DNA of 64,000 nt from positions 120,928 through 184,927 of the forward strand of contig CAXBER010000005.1 of the NCBI GenBank assembly GCA_963974875.1. The letters run 5' to 3'. Below are positions 44,642 through 61,727 of this stretch, piece after piece. The position numbers and the translations under genes were made by a program. The notes beneath the pieces were generated by a model. The model searched no databases and had not been told where the DNA came from. It worked only from the letters and a program-made list of their open reading frames with translations. Each line of letters starts with the position of its first letter. Position 1 is the first letter of the stretch. Source of the DNA: an uncultured Pseudohongiella sp. GTDB lineage: Bacteria; Pseudomonadota; Gammaproteobacteria; Pseudomonadales; Pseudohongiellaceae.

Positions 44642-46753
44642 TCAATGCAAAAACCCCATCGGCCGCCGCGCATCCTCTTTGGCAGCACACTCGCCCTGCA
44701 GCACCGAGACAAACTCCCGCGCTGATCCAATAGGCGAGAATTTGTGCCGCCGGGAGGCCGTGGCAAAATCACCCGGCGTCAGATTGCCCAGAGAACCCAG
44801 TGTGCGCGTTACCGATTCATCAGGCGCTGGCAAACCCAGCGACTCGCAGCAGCGATGCGTCAGCTGCACCGCCTGCTCTGGCGCCAGATAGCCAAAACGC
44901 AACTTAAGATCAAAACGCCGCAACGCCGCCTGGTCCAGGTTGTCAGCCAGGTTGGTGGAGGCAATAAAAATACCCTCAAAGGCTTCCAGTTGTGTCAGCA
45001 GTTCATTGACCATGGTCACTTCCCAGCCGGCGCGCAGGGAGCGGCGATCCTGCAGCAGGCTGTCCACCTCATCAATCAGCAGCACACTGGGTTCCTCGCG
45101 TGCCTGCTCAAGGGCCCTGGCAATATTTTTCTCGGTCTGCCCCACATACATGCCCAACAGATCCGAGGACTTTTTCATGATAAGCGGCAGGTCCAGTTGT
45201 TTGGCCAGCCAGTGCGCATACGCAGTTTTGCCGGTGCCGGGTGGGCCGTACAGACAGAGCCGGGCGCTGCTGGCTTTGCCGATGCCTCGGGCCAGCGACA
45301 CCAGGTCGGATTCGCAGTTAACAAAGGCCGGATCATACACGGCGGGCAAGGGCGGGGCTGCTTTGGTTTTCTCCAGCGTGCGGAATCCCTGGGCCTTCAA
45401 TGTGCTGTTGACCAGGCTTTTGACCACGTCGGCTGACTTGCTGTCCGGCAACTGCGCCTTGACCGAGCAGGCCACCGCGATGGCTGAACGGGCGACTGCC
45501 GGGGACAGGTCAGTCAGTTGCGAGAACTCAGCGATTTCCTCCTTGCTCAGCATGTCGCCAAAAAATTCAGTCAGCATACGGCTGCGGTGTTTGCGTGAAG
45601 GAATCGGCAATTCAATCACCATGTCGAAGCGACGGATTACGGCAGGGTCGATACCGTAGGTGCTGTTGGACAGCCACAGCGTGGGCACGGCGTTTTCTTC
45701 CAGCATGCGGTTCAACCAGGCCTTGCGCGACTGAGCGCGCCTGGGTCTGAATATATCGTTTTCGCCAGTCAGCACATCCTCGGCTTCATCAAAGACCAGC
45801 ATGGCACGCGAATTGGCGAAAAAGCACTGGCCGGCACGGTACGCGCGAAGCCGGTTTTCGCCTCCCACCGAGTCGCCGTCCTCATCACAAAACGCCACCT
45901 CATAGAGTTGACGTTGCAGATGCTGCGCCACCACACGTGCGAGCTGACTCTTGCCGGTGCCGGGATCGCCGTGCAGCAGGATGTTGACGCCTGTTTTTGC
46001 CCCGGCAGAGACTGCCTCCAGGTAGCTGCGCAGGATAAGCATGTCATGCTCGATATGCGCATAGTCAGACCATGCCAGCTCCGGTGCAGATGCAGGCGTG
46101 ACCGTCTCGCGCAGCAGCGAAACCGGTTCGGCATCCAGCGTCAGCAGGCAGTCGGCAAAGCTGTTCGACAACAGGTCCAGCTTGCGGCTGATATAGTTCA
46201 TGCCGTTGCGATCAATGGATACCAGCCCGGACCTGACCAACAGCCCCCGCTCACCCAGGGACAGTCGGATATCAGGCTCCGGTATGTCGAGAAGCACAGA
46301 CAGCGCCCGCATCAGGTCATTACTGGACACATTGCCCAGAGAGTCCGTCGCGGTCGTCAGAAAGTCGTTATTAAAAACCATAACAGCAAACTCAAGTACC
46401 CGGCAGTCAGTATCAGTCAGCCCCACCATACCGGCCAGCTTGTGTATGTTTTGCTGAAGCGAGGCGGGCAGCGATGTGCCGGCGGCTGTTTTCTCGGCAA
46501 CAAGTGCCAGCTTTTTCAGCTCCGCCCGGATTGCTTTGTCGTCAAAATCGTCCGCGTTTATCCAGTGCTCAAGGCCGATGACCTTGGCCAGGCGCTCGTC
46601 TTCAAAGCCATGGGATTGGATAAACTCGCGATATCCGCCGCACTGCATCAGCGCCCGGTAGATCCACAGCTTTACCCGCGACGGGACAGAGGTGCTGACA
46701 TTGAAATGAGCTCGTCGATGGCGTCGAACAGATGGTAGCGCTGGCATAAGCAT
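44642..46753 (-). CDS. Double-domain AAA+ ATPase
   Basis: Two Walker A motifs (GDPGTGKS, GPPGTGKT) and two Walker B motifs (VFDEAE, LIDEVD); C-terminal MGF; start ATG 46753 or 46747. Confidence 0.9.
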   Translation of the reverse strand: MLMPALPSVRRHRRAHFNVSTSVPSRVKLWIYRALMQCGGYREFIQSHGFEDERLAKVIGLEHWINADDFDDKAIRAELKKLALVAEKTAAGTSLPASLQQNIHKLAGMVGLTDTDCRVLEFAVMVFNNDFLTTATDSLGNVSSNDLMRALSVLLDIPEPDIRLSLGERGLLVRSGLVSIDRNGMNYISRKLDLLSNSFADCLLTLDAEPVSLLRETVTPASAPELAWSDYAHIEHDMLILRSYLEAVSAGAKTGVNILLHGDPGTGKSQLARVVAQHLQRQLYEVAFCDEDGDSVGGENRLRAYRAGQCFFANSRAMLVFDEAEDVLTGENDIFRPRRAQSRKAWLNRMLEENAVPTLWLSNSTYGIDPAVIRRFDMVIELPIPSRKHRSRMLTEFFGDMLSKEEIAEFSQLTDLSPAVARSAIAVACSVKAQLPDSKSADVVKSLVNSTLKAQGFRTLEKTKAAPPLPAVYDPAFVNCESDLVSLARGIGKASSARLCLYGPPGTGKTAYAHWLAKQLDLPLIMKKSSDLLGMYVGQTEKNIARALEQAREEPSVLLIDEVDSLLQDRRSLRAGWEVTMVNELLTQLEAFEGIFIASTNLADNLDQAALRRFDLKLRFGYLAPEQAVQLTHRCCESLGLPAPDESVTRTLGSLGNLTPGDFATASRRHKFSPIGSAREFVSVLQGECAAKEDARRPMGFLH

Positions 46754-46789
46754 CTCCGGTTGGTGGGAGTTGCAGAATACCCGGAGTTG

Positions 46790-46862
46790 CGACGAGAAGT
46801 GTCGTTTATGACGGATTGATTGAATTAGCCAATTGGGTAGGTTGCAACGACACAAAATGTCG
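46790..46862. promoter_or_regulatory. Two CGAC-N7-GTCG palindromes (putative WYL-regulator sites)
   Basis: CGAC-GAGAAGT-GTCG at 46790-46804 and CGAC-ACAAAAT-GTCG at 46848-46862. Confidence 0.65.
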
Positions 46863-46995: not shown

Positions 46996-47952
46996 ATGCC
47001 AAAACGCCCTGATGGCATGGAAACGGTTCATCTGACCATTGAACTGTTACAGCGCATCCCCAGGCAGCGCAAAATCACCGCCAACGAGCTTCAGGCACAG
47101 TTGGCGGATGCCGGTTATGAGCGGACTTTGCGCAGCATCCAACGTCAACTGCAGCAGATCACCGAGCATTTTGATGTCGAATGTGATGACCGTAGCAAAC
47201 CCTTTGGCTACCGCTGGAAAGAGAAATCCAAAGGTTTGTCCCTGCCCGGGCTGAACCAGCATGAATCATTACTGCTGGCGCTGGCAGAGCAACATCTGCG
47301 CAACCTGCTGCCCGGCAAACTCATGGCCTCCATGGACGCGTACTTCCGCCAGGCCCGAACCAATCTGCAGGACACCAGCAAAGCACACCTTGAAAAAGAA
47401 TGGCTGCAGAAAGTCAGAGTGGTCAGCGCAACCCAACCATTACTCCCGCCAACCATAGACGAAAGCATTTTCTCCCAGATCAGCCATGCGCTGTATAACA
47501 ACCTGTGGCTGAAGATCCGGTATCGCAATGCCAGCGGCAAGGAGGTTGACTCGCGCGTCATGCCTCTGGGGTTGGCACAGCAAGGCGTGCATTTGTACCT
47601 GGTGTGCCGCTTTGAAGGGTTTGACAATGAGCGCACACTGGCATTGCATCGGTTTATTTCGGCGGAAGCCGGTACGATGACGTTCAAGCGGCCGAAAGAG
47701 TTTGATCTGCGGCGTTACGACGATGATGGGCGCTTTGGTTTTGGCGAGGGGGAGCGAATCAAGTTGAGCTTCTGCATCAATAAGGCGGCCGGGAAACATT
47801 TGTTAGAGGCGCGGTTGTCTGAGGATCAGGTGGTTGAGGAGTTTGAGGGGTATTACCGGATTACGGCGACGGTGGTGGATAGTGCGATGCTGGATAGGTG
47901 GCTTCGTGGATTTGGGGGGGAGCTCTGGGCCGCATCAAAAAATGGAATTTAG
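46996..47952 (+). CDS. wHTH-WYL-WCX transcriptional regulator
   Basis: RIPRQRKIT...RTLRSIQRQL; YRNASG...MPLGL...LYLVC...ALHRF; LLEARLSEDQ...WLRGFG. Confidence 0.92.
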   Translation: MPKRPDGMETVHLTIELLQRIPRQRKITANELQAQLADAGYERTLRSIQRQLQQITEHFDVECDDRSKPFGYRWKEKSKGLSLPGLNQHESLLLALAEQHLRNLLPGKLMASMDAYFRQARTNLQDTSKAHLEKEWLQKVRVVSATQPLLPPTIDESIFSQISHALYNNLWLKIRYRNASGKEVDSRVMPLGLAQQGVHLYLVCRFEGFDNERTLALHRFISAEAGTMTFKRPKEFDLRRYDDDGRFGFGEGERIKLSFCINKAAGKHLLEARLSEDQVVEEFEGYYRITATVVDSAMLDRWLRGFGGELWAASKNGI

Positions 47953-48460: not shown

Positions 48461-50747
48461 ATGTCAATTTTTAAAGCAGAAGCTAAATCGTTGCTAAAAT
48501 TGTTTACAGGTGAGGCAAACCGTATCGGCTTTAAAATCCCGGAATATCAAAGGAAATATGACTGGGGTGAAAACAATATCATTAGATTATTCGAAGATAC
48601 TCTGTCTGGATTGAAATCATTGGAGCGGGATCCAGATTCCATCACATTCTTAGGTTCAATAATTCTTATCCAAAATCAAGATCTAAGAGAGCCGAGCTTT
48701 GACGGAGAATCTTTAGAAATAGTGGATGGTCAGCAGCGAATAACTTCATGCGCTATAGTAGCGGTGCATCTTCACGAAGCGATAGACACGGAACTGTCTA
48801 GTCTTCCCGAGATAGGCACTGATCTTAGAGAGTGGTTAACAAGAGAAGCGAAAAGAACGAAGCAATTGCTGCTGCAGTGCGTATTTGGGAATTTATTGGT
48901 GGATGGTATAGATAATTTCCCATTTCCTAGAATTGTAAGAACGAATGATAATAGAGCTGCGTCAGATGGTGAGTTGGAATATCGGTCATTAACTGCTAAG
49001 TATTTTTTTGGGTATGCTCAACATATTAGAAAAAGGACTAGTCGCCTATACGAGAAACCCGAAGCAGACAAAAATGATCAATCGACAGTCAGATTCTTGG
49101 AGAATGTCAAATTTATAGAAAAATGCATAAGGGTTCTCAGTAAGAGCTCCGAAGAAGTTGACTTTGGAGTAGAGCTTCTAGAAACGAATACTTTCAAGGT
49201 GACAAATATAAGAAAGCTCTTTCAGGCTCCATCGGAACGACAAGACATCACTAATAGACACTTCGAAATGATATGTGGCAAGTACCGATGTGAAACAGAA
49301 GCTCTGGTGAGGCTTGTCATTTTTGCAAACTATTTCCTGGAAAATGTAATTCTAACCGTTGTAACTACTCGGGCAGAGAAATACGCTTTTGATATCTTTG
49401 ACTCCCTTAATACGACAGGCGAGCCATTGACTGCGATCGAAACATTTAAGCCTAAGGTAATTCGATTCGAAAACGGCCAGCAAGGAAAGTACAAGGGATC
49501 CGAAAGTGAGTCCCATTTTGCCGTGGTAGAGAAATATATCGATCAATTTAGTAAAAATAGTGACAAACAAGAAGAGTCGCGTGACCTAATTCTTCCCTTT
49601 GCGCTGCTAACGACTGGTGACAGATGTTCTCGCCATTTGGTAAACCAGCGACGATATCTGAGAGCAGAGTATGATTCAATACCTGTTGAAAATAAGGTTA
49701 ATAAACGGAAATTCATTAAAAATCTCGCAGACATTGCGAGGTTTAAAAGCGAGTTTTGGAATCGAGATAACTTGCTTCAAAGGCTGCCAGTACTCTCGGA
49801 CAGAGAGTCTGTAATATTGTGCCTTGCATTCCTAATAGACCTTAAAAACACTCTTGCAATACCCATACTCACGCGAGTATGGGTTCATTCAGAAGAGATG
49901 GGCGATTTTAAGTTTTTTGCGGACTGTGTCAAAGCACTAACAGCTTTTGTAGTACTTAGAAGAAGCGCTACGGGAGGGACTGCAGGGATCGATAATGATC
50001 TAAGAGGTGTGATGGAAAAAGGGGGGGGTAGATGGAAGCGACCGAGGAATGAAAACTGGGACGAGGTTTGACCGTCCGATGACTTCCGTGACTGACTTCA
50101 AGGAGATGCTGAAAGTTCGTCTAGCAAGACGACCTGCGGAAATTAACGGCAAAGAATCTTGGCTTGACCAGGCCAAAAAGCAACCTTTGTATTTAAGCTC
50201 GCGACCTCTTTGTCGGTTCATTATTCTCGCCGCAAGTCACAATTCTCGCCCATCCCAGGCAGAACCCATACTTTTATTGAAAGATAGACCCAGCCCTGAA
50301 CTGGAGTATCTTTCTTATAGAAAGTGGTTTGAAGACGATTTACTAACAATTGAGCATATAGCACCCGAAAGCGACCGGGAGCGGAAGTGGCCGCTGCCAA
50401 TTTATGATCTACCCTATCTAAGGCACACAATCGGAAATTTGACGTTACTTTCACAGGAGCAGAACTCTGCAATAGCCAATTATGAATGGGGACGGAAGAA
50501 GCTTTTCTATAAAGCATTTTCTGTAGATACGATACGGGAAGTTGAAGCAGCTATCCATGAAGCTTCTGGTCACGGGGTTTCCTTTAGTAACAGGACCAAA
50601 GTGATGCTGAGGGGAATGCGGCAATTGCCAGTGGCAAAAGGGATATCCTTGGCCAGTACGTGGTCTGTCGCGGAGATTGAAGCTAGAACTGAAAATTTGC
50701 TTAGCATCTGTTGGGATGAGATTTCCCCTTGGCTTTTTGATAGCTAA
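48461..50747 (+). pseudogene. sspE: SspE-like DUF262-DUF1524 effector split by a +1 frameshift in a G8 tract (ORFs 48461..50071 and 50049..50747)
   Basis: IPEYQRKYDW, DGQQR and FDSLNTTG in ORF1; EHIAP and GNLTLL in ORF2. Removing one G from 50021-50028 gives a single 761-aa frame. Confidence 0.8.
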
Positions 50748-51109: not shown

Positions 51110-51310
51110 ATGGCAGTGGGCTCAAGCGGTCGAATTGTGATAGAGATTGATCCGGCTACGAAAAAAGAGCTATATCATATGCTTAGAGAGGAAAACTCCA
51201 ATTTAAAAGAGTGGTTTCTACGGCATGTAGAGGATTACCTGGCAGGTAAAGAGCAGTTTCAGTTAGATCTTGGGGCTCCGGTTCGTAACAAAGGCAGACA
51301 TTTTATATGA
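51110..51310 (+). CDS. Small ribbon-helix-helix-like regulator leading the ssp operon
   Basis: RIVIEID...KKELY..L...NLKEWF pattern; ATGA overlap with sspB. Confidence 0.6.
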   Translation: MAVGSSGRIVIEIDPATKKELYHMLREENSNLKEWFLRHVEDYLAGKEQFQLDLGAPVRNKGRHFI

Positions 51311-52227
51311 GATTCAACCCCGAAAAAATGGCCTTCGGGCGGCACGAGACTTTCGCTCTACGCTATGGCTGGCTCTCCAAGGGTTTTCAGGCGCTAGAAG
51401 AAGACGACGGCATCTTCGAGTCAGACGACGCAACTGTAAAGTTGGGCGTGGGTAAAAACATGGTAAATGCCATCAAGTATTGGTTGCGCGCTTGTCAGAT
51501 GATGCACCCTACTCAGAATGCCCCTACTCAGCTTGGAAAAGAGTTGTTGTCTGGTACTGGGTTCGATCCCTACCTAGAAGATGAAGCTACGATATGGTTA
51601 TTGCATTGGCTTTTGGCTACGAATGCTGAACTAGCGACCTCATGGTATTGGTTCTTTAATCGCTTTCATAAGCCAGAGTTTACTGGTCAAGAGTTGAACA
51701 CGGCCCTCAATGACTTCGTTTCGGACAAAGTCATTAATAGAAAAAAACCTGCCCCTGCGACTTTAGCGAACGACGCGAATTTGCTTCCACGCATGTACAC
51801 CCAATCAAAGGGAAATACTCGAACGCCTCTGGAGGACGCACTAGACTCACCATTTTCTTTGTTAAAGCTAGTGACTCAGAGTGCGAGTGGCAGGAGTTTT
51901 CAATCGCGGCCTATGGCGAGACCCGATTTGCCGCTCGGGGTCTTGGGCTTTGCTGTATGCCAAACGTTTGAGATTAAAAACACCAAGGCAATTCCTATAG
52001 AAGATTTTATGTACAGCAAAGATAATTATCCTGCGATAGGTTCGGTATTCCGACTGACAGAAAGCGACTTAGTAACAAAACTCGAAAAACTAATTAACTA
52101 TATCCCAGGTAAATTCGATATCAGAGATACTGCAGGACAGCATCAGCTTTACTCCTCAGAGGTGACTGATGGAATGATCTACATTGCTGAACACTACAAC
52201 CACCCCGCCCAAGGTGTCGCAGCATGA
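51307..52227 (+). CDS. sspB: SspB (DUF4007) phosphorothioation protein
   Basis: FGRHETFALRYGWLSKG, LGVGKNMVNAIKYW, FDPYLED..TIWLLHWLL. Confidence 0.88.
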   Translation: MRFNPEKMAFGRHETFALRYGWLSKGFQALEEDDGIFESDDATVKLGVGKNMVNAIKYWLRACQMMHPTQNAPTQLGKELLSGTGFDPYLEDEATIWLLHWLLATNAELATSWYWFFNRFHKPEFTGQELNTALNDFVSDKVINRKKPAPATLANDANLLPRMYTQSKGNTRTPLEDALDSPFSLLKLVTQSASGRSFQSRPMARPDLPLGVLGFAVCQTFEIKNTKAIPIEDFMYSKDNYPAIGSVFRLTESDLVTKLEKLINYIPGKFDIRDTAGQHQLYSSEVTDGMIYIAEHYNHPAQGVAA

Positions 52228-55200
52228 CCATAGCAAGGCAAGTCCAAATAAATACACATTACACTCGTTCTATTAATTTGGAGCGCGATGCCAATTCCAT
52301 CGACGTTGTCAAAGCATATATACCTACTTCTAGGTCTCTGAAACTATTCGGTCGTATAGCTGACGGATTTCATGGTGAGCGTGCTCCGCGAGCTTGGTCG
52401 CTAATCGGACCGTATGGATCTGGTAAGTCTTCGGCATCTGTATTTCTTTCCCAATTGTTATCGTCCCCAGACTCTCCCGCAACTAAAGTAGCGACGAAAG
52501 CGCTAAAGGCGGCAGCGCCCGAGATCGCATCGCAATTCCGAAAAGAGACTAGTGGAACCGATGGTTATTTGAAAGTACTAGTGACGGGTTCGCCAGAGCC
52601 GATGGGCAAGAAAATAATTAGAGGGTTGTCGGCATCGGTGGTTCAGTATTTCACAAAATTCAAAGGCTCTAACCCCAAAGTAGTTTCGCGCATTGAGGAA
52701 CTTGTCGAATTAGAGATAGTATCTACTTCGGTTGTGCTCGAGATTATGCTGGAATTGCAAGCAGCTCTTGCAAAAAAGAAATGCAAGGGTATCTACATCG
52801 TTATTGATGAACTAGGCAAATTTCTGGAGTTTGAAGCACGTCACTATGGTGCCAACGATATCTATTTGCTTCAAACTTTGGCAGAGCATGCCTGTAAAGG
52901 TGATGAGTGTAATCTCTTTCTTTTTGTGTTGCTGCATCAGTCCTTTGAGCAGTACGCCAAAGGATTAGGTGAGAGCCTTAAGAACGAATGGGCTAAAGTC
53001 CAAGGACGCTTTGAAGATGTGCCGTTTCTTGAGTCGGTAGAACAAGTTCTGAGGGTGGTGAGTGCTGCCTTCAGCTATGATTTTAAACCGAAAGAGCAAG
53101 CGTTGCTTAAGAAGAGAATGGCTGGCTTTGTTGAAGTATTGGGTTCGAACGGCGCTCTACCCGGCGTCGCAGATAGAAGCGCTATGGTTGATCTCATGTG
53201 CCACTGCTATCCGTTTCATCCAGTTAGTGCTGTGTTATTGCCCACGCTCTGCCAGAAAGTAGCGCAGAATGAGCGGACATTATTCAGTTATCTTGGGAGC
53301 CACGAAGAATTTGGACTCCAAGATATGATTGAACGGTTTAGTTCGCTCGATGATTTTATCTACCCGCATCATGTTTACGATTATTTCATTACGAACCAGC
53401 CCGCGGCTTTAGGTGATTATCGTACTCATAGGCGTTGGGCGGAAGTAGTTACCGCGATAGAGAGGTTGGGCGACGCCCCAGAAGATCAGCTCAACCTTCT
53501 TAAAACGATTGGCCTAATGAATATTATCGGGATAAAGGGAGGTTTCAAACCTTCGAAGGCACTGTTAGGGATCTGTGCGCCCGGAAAAGCAGGGGTAAGT
53601 AGTTCCTTAAAGGCGCTGCAAGATAAGTCAATAGTCACCTATCGGCGTTTTAGCGGAGAGTACAGGGTTTGGCAAGGTAGCGATTTTGATCTTGAAGAGG
53701 CGCTAGAAGAAGAACTAAACAATCTTGGTGAGTTCTCTCTGGCCGAAGAGCTTAATAGTGCTAACGCTTTGATGCCAATCGTAGCTCGAAGGTATACGAT
53801 TAAAAGCGGCGCTCTACGCTACTTTGTCCCCGAGTTTGTAGATGCCCAGACTTATATAAAGTCTTCTGGAAAAACAAGCGAGCCGCGCATAATATTTTTC
53901 CTGGCGACCGCCCAGGATGATGAGGCTCTTTTTAGGAAGTTAGTTGTTCAGCACTATTCAGAGCTCGATCTGGTAGCGCTATGCCTTAACGGAACCCAGT
54001 TAAGAGAAGCTACCGCAGAGGTGTTGGCGTTACGACAAGTGCAAAACAAGAGGCAAGAGTTAAACACTGATCCGGTGGCTAAAAGAGAGTTTGAAGATCG
54101 CCTAACTGCAGCAGAGAACGCGGAGCGGCAGCTTCTTCAGCGACTGCAAGAGCAACCGCAAGAGTGCAATTGGTACCATAGTTCCAAAGAGTATAGCGTA
54201 GACGCAAAGCGCGAATTCCAAGAACTATTGTCCTCAGTTCTAGAAAATGTGTATAGCAAATCGCCTCAGCTGCACAATGAGCTCTTAAACAGAGATCGAC
54301 CATCCGCTCAAGCGAACGCGGCACGCAATAGACTTTTAGAAGCGATGATGTTGAATCCGCTGGATAAGGACGACCTTGGGATAGAAAAATTCCCTCCAGA
54401 GAAGGCTATATATCGATCAATCCTGTTGACTACGGGGCTCCACAATAAGGTTTCGAGGGAATTCCAGGAGCCTGCCAAAGACTCCACAATATTCCACGTA
54501 TGGCGACAGATAAATGAGTTCCTTGACTCTACCGAGAAGGCTCCGAAGAGTTTTGCGCAGCTAAATGAATTGTTGATGGCCCCCCCTTATGGCGTTAAAG
54601 CTGGCATGCTTCCTGTTCTTTACGTGGCCGCATATATCGTCTATCAACATGAGCTTGCTTTATACGAAAACAGGCAATATAAGCCAGTTTTTACCCAGGA
54701 GATGATCGAGAGATTTGTCAAGCGCCCTGATGAGTACACTTTTCAAAGATTCAGGATAACTGGTCTGCGGTCTTCAATTTATAAAGAGTATTGCAAGATT
54801 ATTGATACCGGATCGAAGCAAACTGTAGTTCAGCTAGTGAAGCCCTTAGCTCAATTTATTAGTTCATTGCCTGATTTCACTCAGCGTACAAAGAACTCAG
54901 AAATATCGGACCAAGCTATAAAAGTCAGGAATGCATTTAATTTTGCAAAATCTCCAGAGCACCTGATATTCGAGGAAATACCAAAGGCACTCGGATATGA
55001 GGAAGAGCTCCGTAAGAAGAAACCAAACTTGGAGGGTCTCTCCGCAGCCCTTCAGGATTGCTTGCAACAATTAAAGAAAGCATATCCTCAAATGATCCGG
55101 AATCAAATCCGTATGTTGCTAGGCGCATTTCATATGGATGTTAACGCGGACCTGGAAACCCTTAGAAGAAAGGTAATTGGTCGCTATGAAGGTTTAGAGC

Positions 55201-55703
55201 AGCATACTGTGGATGTAGACGGACTCAAGGCGTTTATAAAGAGGTTGACGAAGAGAGAGGGTGATGACGATAGCTGGCTTGAGAATGTTCTACTTTTCTT
55301 GGGACAGAAGCCTACTACGAAATGGACTGATATGGACTGTACAGAAGTCGATATCAAGCTAAGTGAGTACGCCAAACGAATATTAGACCTTGAGGCTTTG
55401 CGTGTTCACTACGATCGCGTAAAGAGCAATATGGATGGGGACTTTGATGTCATTCTGTTAAAGGCAGTAAAGAAAGGCAGTGAGCCCATCGATGAGGTGG
55501 TGGCGATAGACGCTCGAAAGAAAGAAGCCATTCAACTTTGTAAGGCTGGAATATACGCGGCTATAGAAGGTCATTCGGACTCAGAGTTGCAGCTTGCGGC
55601 TTTAGCCGAAGTCGTCGAAGAGTTTCTGAAGAAACGGAAAAACTCTGTTATGTCTGGTCGTCGCCCCACAAAACAAGTTAGGGAGGTGAAGCGTGGCAAT
55701 TAG
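52224..55703 (+). CDS. sspC: SspC P-loop ATPase
   Basis: SINLERD, GPYGSGKS, IDELGKFLE, YPFHP, QNERTLFSYL; 1159 aa between DUF4007 and PAPS reductase genes. Confidence 0.85.
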   Translation: MTIARQVQINTHYTRSINLERDANSIDVVKAYIPTSRSLKLFGRIADGFHGERAPRAWSLIGPYGSGKSSASVFLSQLLSSPDSPATKVATKALKAAAPEIASQFRKETSGTDGYLKVLVTGSPEPMGKKIIRGLSASVVQYFTKFKGSNPKVVSRIEELVELEIVSTSVVLEIMLELQAALAKKKCKGIYIVIDELGKFLEFEARHYGANDIYLLQTLAEHACKGDECNLFLFVLLHQSFEQYAKGLGESLKNEWAKVQGRFEDVPFLESVEQVLRVVSAAFSYDFKPKEQALLKKRMAGFVEVLGSNGALPGVADRSAMVDLMCHCYPFHPVSAVLLPTLCQKVAQNERTLFSYLGSHEEFGLQDMIERFSSLDDFIYPHHVYDYFITNQPAALGDYRTHRRWAEVVTAIERLGDAPEDQLNLLKTIGLMNIIGIKGGFKPSKALLGICAPGKAGVSSSLKALQDKSIVTYRRFSGEYRVWQGSDFDLEEALEEELNNLGEFSLAEELNSANALMPIVARRYTIKSGALRYFVPEFVDAQTYIKSSGKTSEPRIIFFLATAQDDEALFRKLVVQHYSELDLVALCLNGTQLREATAEVLALRQVQNKRQELNTDPVAKREFEDRLTAAENAERQLLQRLQEQPQECNWYHSSKEYSVDAKREFQELLSSVLENVYSKSPQLHNELLNRDRPSAQANAARNRLLEAMMLNPLDKDDLGIEKFPPEKAIYRSILLTTGLHNKVSREFQEPAKDSTIFHVWRQINEFLDSTEKAPKSFAQLNELLMAPPYGVKAGMLPVLYVAAYIVYQHELALYENRQYKPVFTQEMIERFVKRPDEYTFQRFRITGLRSSIYKEYCKIIDTGSKQTVVQLVKPLAQFISSLPDFTQRTKNSEISDQAIKVRNAFNFAKSPEHLIFEEIPKALGYEEELRKKKPNLEGLSAALQDCLQQLKKAYPQMIRNQIRMLLGAFHMDVNADLETLRRKVIGRYEGLEQHTVDVDGLKAFIKRLTKREGDDDSWLENVLLFLGQKPTTKWTDMDCTEVDIKLSEYAKRILDLEALRVHYDRVKSNMDGDFDVILLKAVKKGSEPIDEVVAIDARKKEAIQLCKAGIYAAIEGHSDSELQLAALAEVVEEFLKKRKNSVMSGRRPTKQVREVKRGN

Positions 55704-56562
55704 AAAAGTATCCATAAAGGACATCGAAGGTTTCGATAGCTGTCGGCATGTCTTGGGCTTGTCAGGTGGCAAGGATAGTGCGGCGCTAGCTGTGTACATT
55801 AAGGATAAGTATCCGGAAGTTCATGAGAAAGTAGAGTATTTCTTTACCGATACTGGTGCCGAACTGAAGGAGGTTTACGATTTTCTGGACAAATTGGAAG
55901 CATACTTAGGAAAAGAAATCGCAAGGCTCAGTAGCGGGAAAGACTTCGATCACTGGCTAAAGGTTCACAATGAATACCTACCATCTGCCAAGCAAAGATG
56001 GTGTACCCGCACGATGAAGATAAAACCTTTCGAAGAGTTCGTGGGTAATGATCCGGTGATTAGCTATATTGGCATCAGAGCGGATGAGAATAGAGAAGGA
56101 TATATAAGCCACAAGGAAACGATAAAAGCGGTATTCCCTTTTGTGGAAGACGGGTTAATTAGAAGCGATATCTTTCAGATTCTAAGTGATTCAGTTGGTG
56201 TGCCTGAGTATTACAAGTGGCGCTCACGCTCGGGATGTTACTTCTGCTTTTTTCAACGACAAGATGAGTGGCTCGGCCTAAAGAGAAATCATCCAGACCT
56301 CTTTGAGAAAGCACGTGAGTATGAAAATAAAATTAGGTCAAAGTTCGACTGGAAGGATGGGGTGATTCCAGTGAATGGTCACGGTTATACTTGGTCGTCA
56401 CAAGGGTCCATTGATGAGCTCGTTCTGCGTGCCGAAGCAAGGGAGAAAGAGCAAGGTATTATTGCAAAGTCATCGACGAAAGCTGAGCGGTGGCAGAAAA
56501 CTATAGAGAATATGATAGATGATGATCCCGAAGACCAGGCTTGTTTGATTTGCAGCCTCTAG
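55693..56562 (+). CDS. sspD: SspD PAPS-reductase-family protein
   Basis: SGGKDS, RWCTR.MKIKPF, YKWRSRSGCYFCFFQ, terminal CLICSL. Confidence 0.88.
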   Translation: MAIRKVSIKDIEGFDSCRHVLGLSGGKDSAALAVYIKDKYPEVHEKVEYFFTDTGAELKEVYDFLDKLEAYLGKEIARLSSGKDFDHWLKVHNEYLPSAKQRWCTRTMKIKPFEEFVGNDPVISYIGIRADENREGYISHKETIKAVFPFVEDGLIRSDIFQILSDSVGVPEYYKWRSRSGCYFCFFQRQDEWLGLKRNHPDLFEKAREYENKIRSKFDWKDGVIPVNGHGYTWSSQGSIDELVLRAEAREKEQGIIAKSSTKAERWQKTIENMIDDDPEDQACLICSL

Positions 56563-56779: not shown

Positions 56780-58957
56780 GTGACGCTTAGGGAATTGCCG
56801 CTTAAGTCAGTCTACCGCAGTGGTGAAGATAATATTCTGACTGACTTCTATATACCATGCTTGAAATCAAGTGTGCTATACGAAAGAGCAGTTGGCTTTT
56901 TCTCTTCGTCAATTCTAATTTATGCCATGTGCGGTATCTCTGAACTCCTTCGAAATGGGGGTGAAATGCGTCTCATCATTGGCTATCCTCTAGAAGATGA
57001 TGAGTTTGAGATGTTACAGGCAAGTGAGTCGCTTAACCATCTTGGTAGTAAGCTTAGCGCTGATCTCGAGAAAATGATTTTAGGCGCCAATACTGACTTG
57101 CTTAAGTATAGGTTGAAACTCTTTTTCCTGATGACAGTTACAGGCAAGTTGAAAATTAAGTTTGCCTATCGCCGCAACGGCATGTATCACGAAAAAATTG
57201 GGATTTTACATGATGCAAGTGGAAACAAAGTCTTGTTTCAAGGTTCGGCCAATGAGACAACAAACGCTGTAAATCCAGACCTAAACTTTGAATCTATTAG
57301 TATATATCGCAACTGGGTACATGAGATTTACAGTGACTATGCGCAACCCTACGAGAATGGGTTCGCAAGACTGTGGTCTGGCTCTGACCCTCACACTAAA
57401 ACCTTAGATATCCCGAGCGAACTATATACGTTTATTCACAAGCAGATTAATAGGAGTGTCGAGTACTCAAGACTTGATGACCTTATCGAAGACGAGCGAC
57501 TGTTAGGCGAGCGTCAGGTTGTAGCATACGTTAATAGCTACCCAGTGGTGCCGGCGGAGATTGGAGGGAGACCTTTTACGCCCTATCCGCATCAAATTTC
57601 CGCTCTTAGAACCTGGGCCGCTAGTGAGTATCAAGGGATATTCAAACTGGCGACTGGGGCTGGAAAAACGATAACCGCGATGTACGCCGTAGCTAAAGTT
57701 TTCGAGGCAAATAGGGATGAGCGAAGAATTGCCTTAATAGTTGCTGTTCCATATATCGCTCTTGCGGAGCAATGGATCAAAGAGCTAAGGTCATTTAATA
57801 TGAACCCGATCCCATGTTTCGGGGTGCTTGAAACATGGAGGGACCGTCTCAACTCGTCGATAAGCCAGCTTAATTTAGGGGAGCTTGAGTTTTTTAGTGT
57901 TGTTGTTGTTAATCAGACTCTCCATAAAGAGCCATTCCAGTTGAGTATGGCCAGATTATCCCCAGATAATATTTTCTTCGTTGGTGATGAATGCCACCAC
58001 CATGCTACATCTACTCTCGCAAGTGCAATACCTGCCGCCGCATTCAAGATTGGGCTCTCTGCTACTCCATACTCCGACGAGCTTGATGCCGGGTACGAAA
58101 CCGATCCCGTTAGAATAGGCGCTCTTACAAGTGCATACGGCGGGATAGTTGCTGAATACGGGTTAGCAAATGCGCTCGGTGATGGTGTTCTTACGCCTTA
58201 CAACTACTATATTGAACACGTCTATCTTACAGATGTTGAGATGGACGAGTACCAGGAACTCAGTAAAGAAATAGCAACATGGTTGTCTTCAAATGAAAGC
58301 GAGTTGAGCAATAAGGTAAAAGACCTAATCCGGCGCCGAAATCGTATTATTAACAATGCGTCTCAAAAAATACCTGCGCTTCAGAGGCTTCTGGAAGCAG
58401 AGAATATTGATGACAAAAAGCACACCCTAGTGTACGTCGGGGAGGGGAGGGTACTAGAGCAGGAGGGAAATGTTAGCTTAGAAAAAGACCTAAATCAGCT
58501 TAGTGCCGTGGCTAACTGTATGATGAATCTCGGCTGGAAAGTTTCTAGATTTACCGCGCAAGAAAATAAATCTGACAGATTGGCTATTATAAGCGATTTT
58601 AAGGAAGGTAATATTGAAGCTCTAGTATCAATGCGAGTGCTAGATGAGGGCATCGATATACCCGCGTGCGAGAGAGCCTTCATTCTAGCAAGTACAACAA
58701 ACTCTCGGCAGTTCATACAAAGGCGGGGCAGGATATTGCGAAAATCTCCTGGGAAAGAAGTGGCGAACATTTATGATTTCATAGTAATCCCTAGCGTGAC
58801 AGGTAACTCAGCGCCAGCACCTTGCTTCGTAAGTTTAGTCCGAAGAGAGCTTTACCGATTAATGGAGTTTGTGAAATTGTCAAAGAATAGAAAAGAAGGA
58901 GAGAGCTGGGCGGCAAATCTCGCGAGCCAATTTGATCTGGACATAAAGGAGTTCTAA
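56780..58957 (+). CDS. PLD-like/SF2 helicase of PT-associated restriction modules (SspFGH/PbeA-like)
   Basis: YHEKIG...QGSANET; ATGAGKT; DECHH; LSATP; RVLDEGIDIP; QRRGRILR. Confidence 0.8.
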   Translation: MTLRELPLKSVYRSGEDNILTDFYIPCLKSSVLYERAVGFFSSSILIYAMCGISELLRNGGEMRLIIGYPLEDDEFEMLQASESLNHLGSKLSADLEKMILGANTDLLKYRLKLFFLMTVTGKLKIKFAYRRNGMYHEKIGILHDASGNKVLFQGSANETTNAVNPDLNFESISIYRNWVHEIYSDYAQPYENGFARLWSGSDPHTKTLDIPSELYTFIHKQINRSVEYSRLDDLIEDERLLGERQVVAYVNSYPVVPAEIGGRPFTPYPHQISALRTWAASEYQGIFKLATGAGKTITAMYAVAKVFEANRDERRIALIVAVPYIALAEQWIKELRSFNMNPIPCFGVLETWRDRLNSSISQLNLGELEFFSVVVVNQTLHKEPFQLSMARLSPDNIFFVGDECHHHATSTLASAIPAAAFKIGLSATPYSDELDAGYETDPVRIGALTSAYGGIVAEYGLANALGDGVLTPYNYYIEHVYLTDVEMDEYQELSKEIATWLSSNESELSNKVKDLIRRRNRIINNASQKIPALQRLLEAENIDDKKHTLVYVGEGRVLEQEGNVSLEKDLNQLSAVANCMMNLGWKVSRFTAQENKSDRLAIISDFKEGNIEALVSMRVLDEGIDIPACERAFILASTTNSRQFIQRRGRILRKSPGKEVANIYDFIVIPSVTGNSAPAPCFVSLVRRELYRLMEFVKLSKNRKEGESWAANLASQFDLDIKEF

Positions 58958-58960
58958 AAG

Positions 58961-59182
58961 ATGGACCCTATCGAAGAGTTGAAAGCAATAAAGGAAGAAC
59001 TTATCAAGGACGAACAGGAGGACGTGATTCAGAGAACCCTTTCTAAGCTAATTGCTATAGAGAAGTCCGCTGTGTACGGAGGTAGGGTTTCAAATAAAGC
59101 CGGAAAGATAGAGAGCGTGATCGATTCGGAGTTTAAGGTTTATAAGGAGAACTCGGGTGCTTCTAAAAAGAATAAAGCTTAA
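58961..59182 (+). CDS. Small 73-aa protein (PbeB-like position)
   Basis: Tightly packed, 3 bp after the helicase stop and overlapping the next gene; KLIAIEKSAVYG. Confidence 0.65.
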   Translation: MDPIEELKAIKEELIKDEQEDVIQRTLSKLIAIEKSAVYGGRVSNKAGKIESVIDSEFKVYKENSGASKKNKA

Positions 59183-61214: not shown

Positions 61215-61727
61215 ATGGGATCACTAAGCAAAGAAATAGCAACAAAGGAAGTTCGTCGTAATAACAAATACAATGTTCTGGTAAACCTGCTGGTATTTGG
61301 TTCGCTTGATGGAGATGAAAGCTTTAAAGGTCAACGGGTTTTTCCTTACATTAAGGACTTAATAATATTCGCTGCGATGGTCGGCAAGCGTTTTAATGTT
61401 CAAGAGGAAGTCGAGCGCGAGAATACAAAAATTATTCTAGGTACATTTGAGGGTAGTGCTGGAAGTAGTCGTGAAACAAGAATTGATCAGCATAATATTA
61501 TATTTATGTTTGGGCTTTCTGTGCTCAGAGATATGAAATACTTAAGAGATGAGAATGTGGACGAAGTGATTGAGGTCTTCGAAAGATACTCCAATGGAGG
61601 GTTGGGCATTATTTACGAGTGGCTCCGGGATGCGGCTTGGAACCCTATGGTGTTGCTAGACAAAATGGTCGATGAAGTAGAAGCGTCTGCCGGTGGACAG
61701 CCTAGTGCGATCACCAACCCATTTTAA
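61215..61727 (+). CDS. DNA phosphorothioation-associated small protein (dnd-associated protein 4/PbeD-like)
   Basis: FPYIKDLIIFAAMVG...FERYSNGGL pattern; last gene of the module. Confidence 0.65.
   Translation: MGSLSKEIATKEVRRNNKYNVLVNLLVFGSLDGDESFKGQRVFPYIKDLIIFAAMVGKRFNVQEEVERENTKIILGTFEGSAGSSRETRIDQHNIIFMFGLSVLRDMKYLRDENVDEVIEVFERYSNGGLGIIYEWLRDAAWNPMVLLDKMVDEVEASAGGQPSAITNPF

Follow-up and report, generated by a model that had tools for sequence, protein, structure and literature searches.

The sspE gene of a Pseudohongiella-related marine gammaproteobacterium, an organism known only from metagenomes, probably carries a real and recent frameshift that arose by slippage in a run of eight G residues (G8), that is fixed at the consensus level, and that lies in an otherwise intact island of SspBCD and a Pbe-like effector module. 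The lesion has the appearance of a recent gene loss of an ordinary kind, not of a switch that evolved to turn the gene on and off. Positions given below are those of the window, the whole 64,000-nt stretch of DNA that was analysed, unless a contig name precedes them.

A single extra G splits sspE

The sequence around the lesion (50012-50071) reads ATG GAA AAA GGG GGG GGT AGA TGG AAG CGA CCG AGG AAT GAA AAC TGG GAC GAG GTT TGA. The ATG at 50012, which is preceded by GTG, is not a start codon and corresponds to an internal methionine (residue 518) of the open reading frame 48461-50071, whose 536-aa frame is closed by the stop at 50069-50071. The 5´ ORF encodes a DUF262/GmrSD_N domain with the DGQQR motif (IVDGQQRIT in the translation) and the beginning of the C-terminal domain; its last 15 residues, past the G8 run, are read out of frame. 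No stop interrupts the +1 frame between the run and 50747, and its translation contains VDGSDRGMKTGTRFDRP and, further on, TIEHIAPESD. Its longest ATG-started ORF is 50049-50747 (232 aa). Both pieces match, one after the other, a single 766-position PADLOC profile of SspE (Table 1).

Table 1. Coordinates of sspE, its tract and the neighbouring genes in the window, with the evidence for each assignment
Feature	Coordinates	Strand	Evidence or remark
G8 homopolymer, frameshift site	50021..50028	+	sspE codons 521-523
sspE 5´ ORF, 536 aa	48461..50071	+	PF03235 5e-27; PADLOC SspE 2.8e-155, profile positions 4-527 of 766
sspE 3´ part, +1 frame, DUF1524/GmrSD_C, EHIAP/HNH region	50029..50747	+	PF07510 1.7e-15; SspE profile positions 539-765
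66-aa ORF overlapping the sspB start	51110..51310	+	called in L002, L006, L008 and L009
sspB (DUF4007), intact	51307..52227	+	PF13182 7e-80; PADLOC SspB 2e-92, full profile
sspC (large P-loop ATPase), intact	52224..55703	+	PADLOC SspC E=0, profile positions 1-1063 of 1064
sspD (PAPS-reductase-like), intact	55693..56562	+	PADLOC SspD 8e-105, profile positions 1-276 of 277
PbeA-like PLD + SF2 helicase, 725 aa, first gene of the module	56780..58957	+	PADLOC PbeA 1.5e-229, positions 1-680 of 682
73-aa ORF in the PbeB position	58961..59182	+	size and order only
PbeC-like SMC/DndD-like ATPase, 683 aa	59157..61208	+	PADLOC PbeC 2.5e-179, positions 1-642 of 643
170-aa ORF in the PbeD position	61215..61727	+	TIGR04062 dnd_assoc_4 1.8e-11, below cut-off

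Removal of one G yields a continuous frame of 761 aa whose alignment to P0003, an intact metagenomic orthologue of the same length, needs no gaps, with 673 of the 762 aligned positions identical (88%, terminal stop counted) and the local string MEKGGVDGSDRGMKTGT common to both. The orthologue itself matches the solved SspE chains (PDB 6JIV, 7DRS) over its full length, with E-values of 3e-103 to 5e-108. In the published structure of SspE, the N-terminal domain (residues 1-324) is joined by a linker (325-331) to the C-terminal domain (332-771); by homology, the G8 tract falls inside the C-terminal domain, between its DNA-binding start and the HNH motif. Of the 14 G/C runs of at least eight bases in the genome, only the tract in sspE connects two long frames. 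These results bear out what the preliminary description had read from this segment: that one extra G in a G8 tract interrupts sspE, that the frame stops at 50069-50071 whereas G7 would lead on to 761 aa and into the EHIAP domain, and that the truncated product keeps DGQQR and lacks the nuclease.

The gene resembles the SspE nickase of the phosphorothioate-sensing SspBCD-SspE defence systems of Vibrio cyclitrophicus FF75, E. coli 3234/A and Streptomyces yokosukanensis in its DUF262/DGQQR and DUF1524/HNH domains and in its adjacency to sspBCD, whose products match the SspB, SspC and SspD profiles end to end at 51307-56562. It differs from them in that the ORF is split by the additional G inside the C-terminal domain, so that the DUF1524/HNH domain is encoded in the +1 frame after G8 and not on the same polypeptide as the N-terminal domain. 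The cluster around it also departs from those systems: it has no sspA, a 66-aa ORF precedes sspB, and a Pbe-like module accompanies the writer genes.

The ssp island and its second effector module

The 66-aa ORF has no family match on record. Its sequence conservation marks it as a real, unnamed gene of the ssp cluster: 53 of 67 residues are the same in the orthologous locus, with a dN/dS of 0.07.

Downstream of the phosphorothioate (PT) writer genes lies a second, intact PT-linked effector module, as had been noted before. Its assignment to PbeABCD is based on strong PbeA and PbeC profile matches beside the PT writers, and on size and position for B and D; the archetypal PbeB and PbeD have 66 and 152 aa (PMC6459918). 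The PbeA-like gene also matches TIGR04095 (dnd_restrict_1) at 3.5e-124, with a score of 415 bits that falls short of the curated threshold of 600. In gene order and sizes (a helicase, a protein of about 70 aa, an SMC-like ATPase and a protein of about 160 aa) the module is like that of DndCDEA-PbeABCD in Haloterrigena jeotgali A29 (PMC6459918). Unlike the haloarchaeal system, it stands here in a bacterium, next to writers of the Ssp type (single-strand) and together with an sspE gene. Its identification as SspFGH was considered and rejected: the published description, with a Walker-A SspF and an FtsK-like SspH (PMC8092258), does not fit, and PADLOC returns Pbe. The arrangement of one PT writer with two restriction modules is still shared with SspBCD + SspE + SspFGH (PMC8092258), from which the present locus differs by a second module unlike SspFGH as described and by the breakage of one of its two effectors.

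The genome comprises 25 contigs (3.68 Mb, 54% G+C) in which a 16S gene is absent, and is therefore identified as a metagenome-assembled genome (MAG). In RNase R it shares 95% identity with a marine gammaproteobacterial MAG and 78% with Pseudohongiella. This sspE is missing from 40 relatives, which indicates that the island is strain-specific. A scan with P0003 of genome and metagenome contigs for further orthologous DNA returned just the contig that was already known.

The gene immediately upstream of sspE (46996-47952) has the same orientation and encodes a WYL-domain regulator; divergent from it is a double-AAA ATPase gene (44642-46855). On the orthologous contig L002, a UPF0227 (YqiA-family) gene (L002:575-1225), next to a Gp49/HigB-like gene, is found some 0.9 kb from sspE. 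The ssp island may occupy an insertion hotspot shared by the two lineages and filled with different cargo in each.

The G8 tract recurs across assemblies

Five contigs, drawn from NCBI, Logan, ENA and Tara, encode the exact 536-aa truncated product; at 685 kb, one of them exceeds every contig of the present assembly in length. G8 is present in scaffold L006 from Tara sample SAMEA4397174 (100% identical over 2.6 kb), in scaffold L007 from SAMEA4397295 and in scaffold L008 from SAMEA4396941, the last with an additional SNP at 50034. It is also present in Logan contig L009 of run ERR2762120 (100% identical over 3.2 kb) and in a Logan contig of run X1. In all, G8 recurs in at least six assemblies, including the MAG, and in at least three Tara samples, and is the consensus everywhere the population was assembled. 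No other tract length was seen in these assemblies, where lengths were read from contigs, that is, as a consensus under which a minority of G7 cells would be hidden. Run X2 gave no contig across the tract; this gap is uninformative, because a similar one occurs in the same run 300 nt further on, at a depth of 3-4x. An intact version of the G8 allele was not found among the matches of a large protein search.

Age of the frameshift and possible further decay

In comparison with P0003, the dN/dS values are 0.115 upstream of the tract and 0.162 downstream, where the 241 codons contain no gaps or extra stops; the corresponding value for sspB is 0.056. The low ratio after the tract indicates that the nuclease part has been under selection nearly throughout the time since the lineages split, and hence that the frameshift is recent. 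At the consensus level, the population as a whole carries a lesion that is disabling relative to intact orthologues, which is one of the marks of a recent pseudogene.

Evidence of additional decay is equivocal. The SNP of L008 at 50034 (L008:1283) is a G-to-A change six bases past the tract; it replaces Gly by Arg in the functional frame and turns TGG into TAG in the shifted frame. In the same scaffold, 61 nt (49709-49769) are swapped for 25 unrelated, G+C-rich bases (L008:994-1019), an in-frame net loss of 36 nt, and the 25-nt insert has no match elsewhere in the genome. L007 is without 29 nt (49194-49222) and 39 nt (49784-49822) of sspE, the first of these deletions being bounded by a 6-nt direct repeat, CTTTCA. 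Both L007 and L008 are low-coverage scaffolds, and L006 contains a scaffold gap of 10 N. Gaps of 10 N and joins at short repeats could both arise from scaffolding under the defaults of the SPAdes scaffolder. The L007 deletions and the L008 replacement may therefore be either real variants or artefacts of scaffolding and assembly, and they were not used as proof of decay, given that the 6-nt repeat and the 10-N gap fit scaffolding. If real, they would add to the damage borne by G8 haplotypes and would establish sspE as a pseudogene. It had been proposed beforehand that a fixed G8 with other decay would identify a plain pseudogene: the first half holds at the consensus level, and the second remains ambiguous, comprising the SNP and the indels of L007 and L008.

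Phase variation as an alternative

The preliminary description regarded sspE as a candidate phase-variable effector that slippage could toggle while the second effector module stays on. On this reading, a contingency G run would flip between G7 (ON) and G8 (OFF) and let a fraction of cells switch the nickase, with PT writing and the Pbe-like module remaining active. No phase-variable PT-sensing effector would have preceded it. The 8-base G run within the ORF does toggle the frame, with a stop at G8 and a gapless 761 aa at one G fewer, and a reversible switch would also predict the fully intact, low-dN/dS downstream part that is observed. Toggling would be cheap, given that SspE needs PT, is non-toxic without it and adds to a second effector. 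There is also a precedent in Campylobacter: in the type IIG enzyme cj0031 of Campylobacter jejuni, as in sspE, a G run lies within the ORF of a DNA-targeting enzyme and one base decides on the full-length product.

The evidence from tract length and conservation argues against this reading, which is now rather unlikely. The poly-G restriction enzymes have conserved tracts that are polymorphic in length within cultures, and neither property is found here. Tract length does not vary in the assemblies and samples examined, with the reservation that contigs hide minority variants. In the nearest orthologue the tract is interrupted (AAA GGG GGA GTG, that is, G5-A-G, encoding the same K-G-G-V), and the more distant SspE homologues have no Gly-Gly at this site, which answers in the negative the earlier question of whether orthologues keep a G run here. 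The difference between GGA in the orthologue and GGG in the present gene indicates that the long G run is a lineage-specific product of a synonymous change.

The genome as a whole does not show the repeat excess that accompanies contingency loci. Counts of G/C runs fall geometrically (251, 49, 10, 2, 1 and 1 for lengths 6 to 11), long runs are not over-represented, and G8 runs are tolerated in frame in essential genes (argH, murF and secF). The tract lies at codon 521 of 761, 68% of the way through the ORF and far from its 5´ end. MutS (905-aa frame) and MutL (623-aa frame) are intact, and their presence predicts low switching rates. The hosts of poly-G phase-variable restriction enzymes are not known to have MutS/MutL-type repair. 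A full-text search of one library of papers found none that links SspE to phase variation.

Low-rate reversion is possible for any G8 run, and what has been removed is the positive evidence for a contingency locus. It is unlikely that the tract works as a low-rate reversible switch on one of two PT-dependent effectors, with all of the sampled populations being OFF at present.

The two longest G/C runs of the genome, a C11 (C3:218133-218143) and a C10 (C5:260418-260427), are located outside the window, at or just upstream of the starts of ORFs of 246 and 232 aa, where a change in length could affect expression. As candidates for expression that depends on slippage, these two runs are stronger than the tract in sspE.

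Possible expression-level rescue or a split enzyme

Function could also be retained in spite of the frameshift, either because some full-length SspE is made by an occasional +1 ribosomal slip on GGG GGG G or by slippage of RNA polymerase, or because translation of the 3´ ORF starts separately, at the ATG at 50049 or 50079, and its product assembles with the 5´ piece. The fixation of G8 while the 3´ part is intact would suit both versions. For a ribosomal slip, the tRNA-Gly on GGG would re-pair perfectly one base downstream, and GTA then follows to give exactly KGGVDG; around the tract, however, neither a slow codon nor a known stimulator is correctly placed. For a split enzyme, the ORF that begins with the ATG at 50049 shares 23 nt with the end of the 5´ ORF, as is typical where translation is coupled, but the GAGGA ahead of this ATG is too near to serve as a ribosome-binding site. 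Assembly from two polypeptides has a precedent in GmrS/GmrD, which are two-gene enzymes. A functional split of this kind at a domain boundary is weakened by the position of the break, which misses the 7-aa linker between the domains and falls within the C-terminal domain. The orthologues, moreover, are single unshifted ORFs, and rescue or a working split enzyme is considered quite improbable.

Sequencing or assembly error as an alternative

The possibility that the true tract is G7 and sspE intact, which had been raised as a real alternative, is now very unlikely: homopolymers are classic sites of indel errors, the data are all metagenomic and from one project, some at about 5x depth, and run X2 has no contig across the tract, but different assemblers give G8 in three Tara samples, two Logan runs and the MAG, a haplotype distinguishable by its extra SNP has G8 as well, other coding G/C runs of at least eight bases (among them those in argH, murF, secF and a GST-like gene) remain in frame within long ORFs, and broken genes are not in excess at the homopolymers of this genome. 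Genome-wide, frameshift-like junctions occur at 3-4% of homopolymers against 3.1% of random positions, figures that come from a permissive detector, which catches ordinary gene junctions too, and that are useful solely as a comparison of rates. Illumina short reads seldom shift the consensus at eight bases, and the Tara metagenomes are presumably short-read Illumina data. Since all of the assemblies derive from one sequencing project, and presumably from one platform, a systematic artefact is conceivable.

A proposed course of events and its significance

The reading preferred here, a real and recent slippage frameshift, can be described in two steps. A synonymous change from the GGA seen in the orthologue to GGG would have created a run of G7, a presumed intermediate, and replication slippage would then have lengthened it to G8. 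The resulting product retains the N-terminal domain, for GTPase activity and PT sensing, and the DNA-binding opening part of the C-terminal domain, and lacks the HNH nickase. Published work that cites Xiong 2020 describes both domains of SspE as necessary for defence. By analogy with such work on SspE, the G8 product should not defend.

The loss was probably tolerated through redundancy, as SspB, SspC, SspD and the PbeABCD-like module are intact. SspE is reported to be PT-dependent, harmless without PT, and additive to a second effector acting with the same PT writer. PbeABCD is likewise PT-dependent and non-toxic in the absence of PT (PMC6459918), and 36 genomes have been reported with both SspE and SspFGH, whose protection is additive (PMC8092258). 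Losing SspE would be cheap because it acts only with PT, is harmless without it, and leaves the writer and the Pbe-like module in place.

For annotation, the locus is to be described as SspBCD and a Pbe-like module with a disabled SspE, and sspE as a frameshifted gene, neither as two genes nor as an assembly error. Mixed tract lengths, if seen in reads, would bring phosphorothioate-based immunity into the range of phase variation. For now, the locus is a clean natural case in which slippage in a homopolymer has cost a defence island one effector but neither the modification partner nor a second effector; it fits the rapid turnover of such islands.
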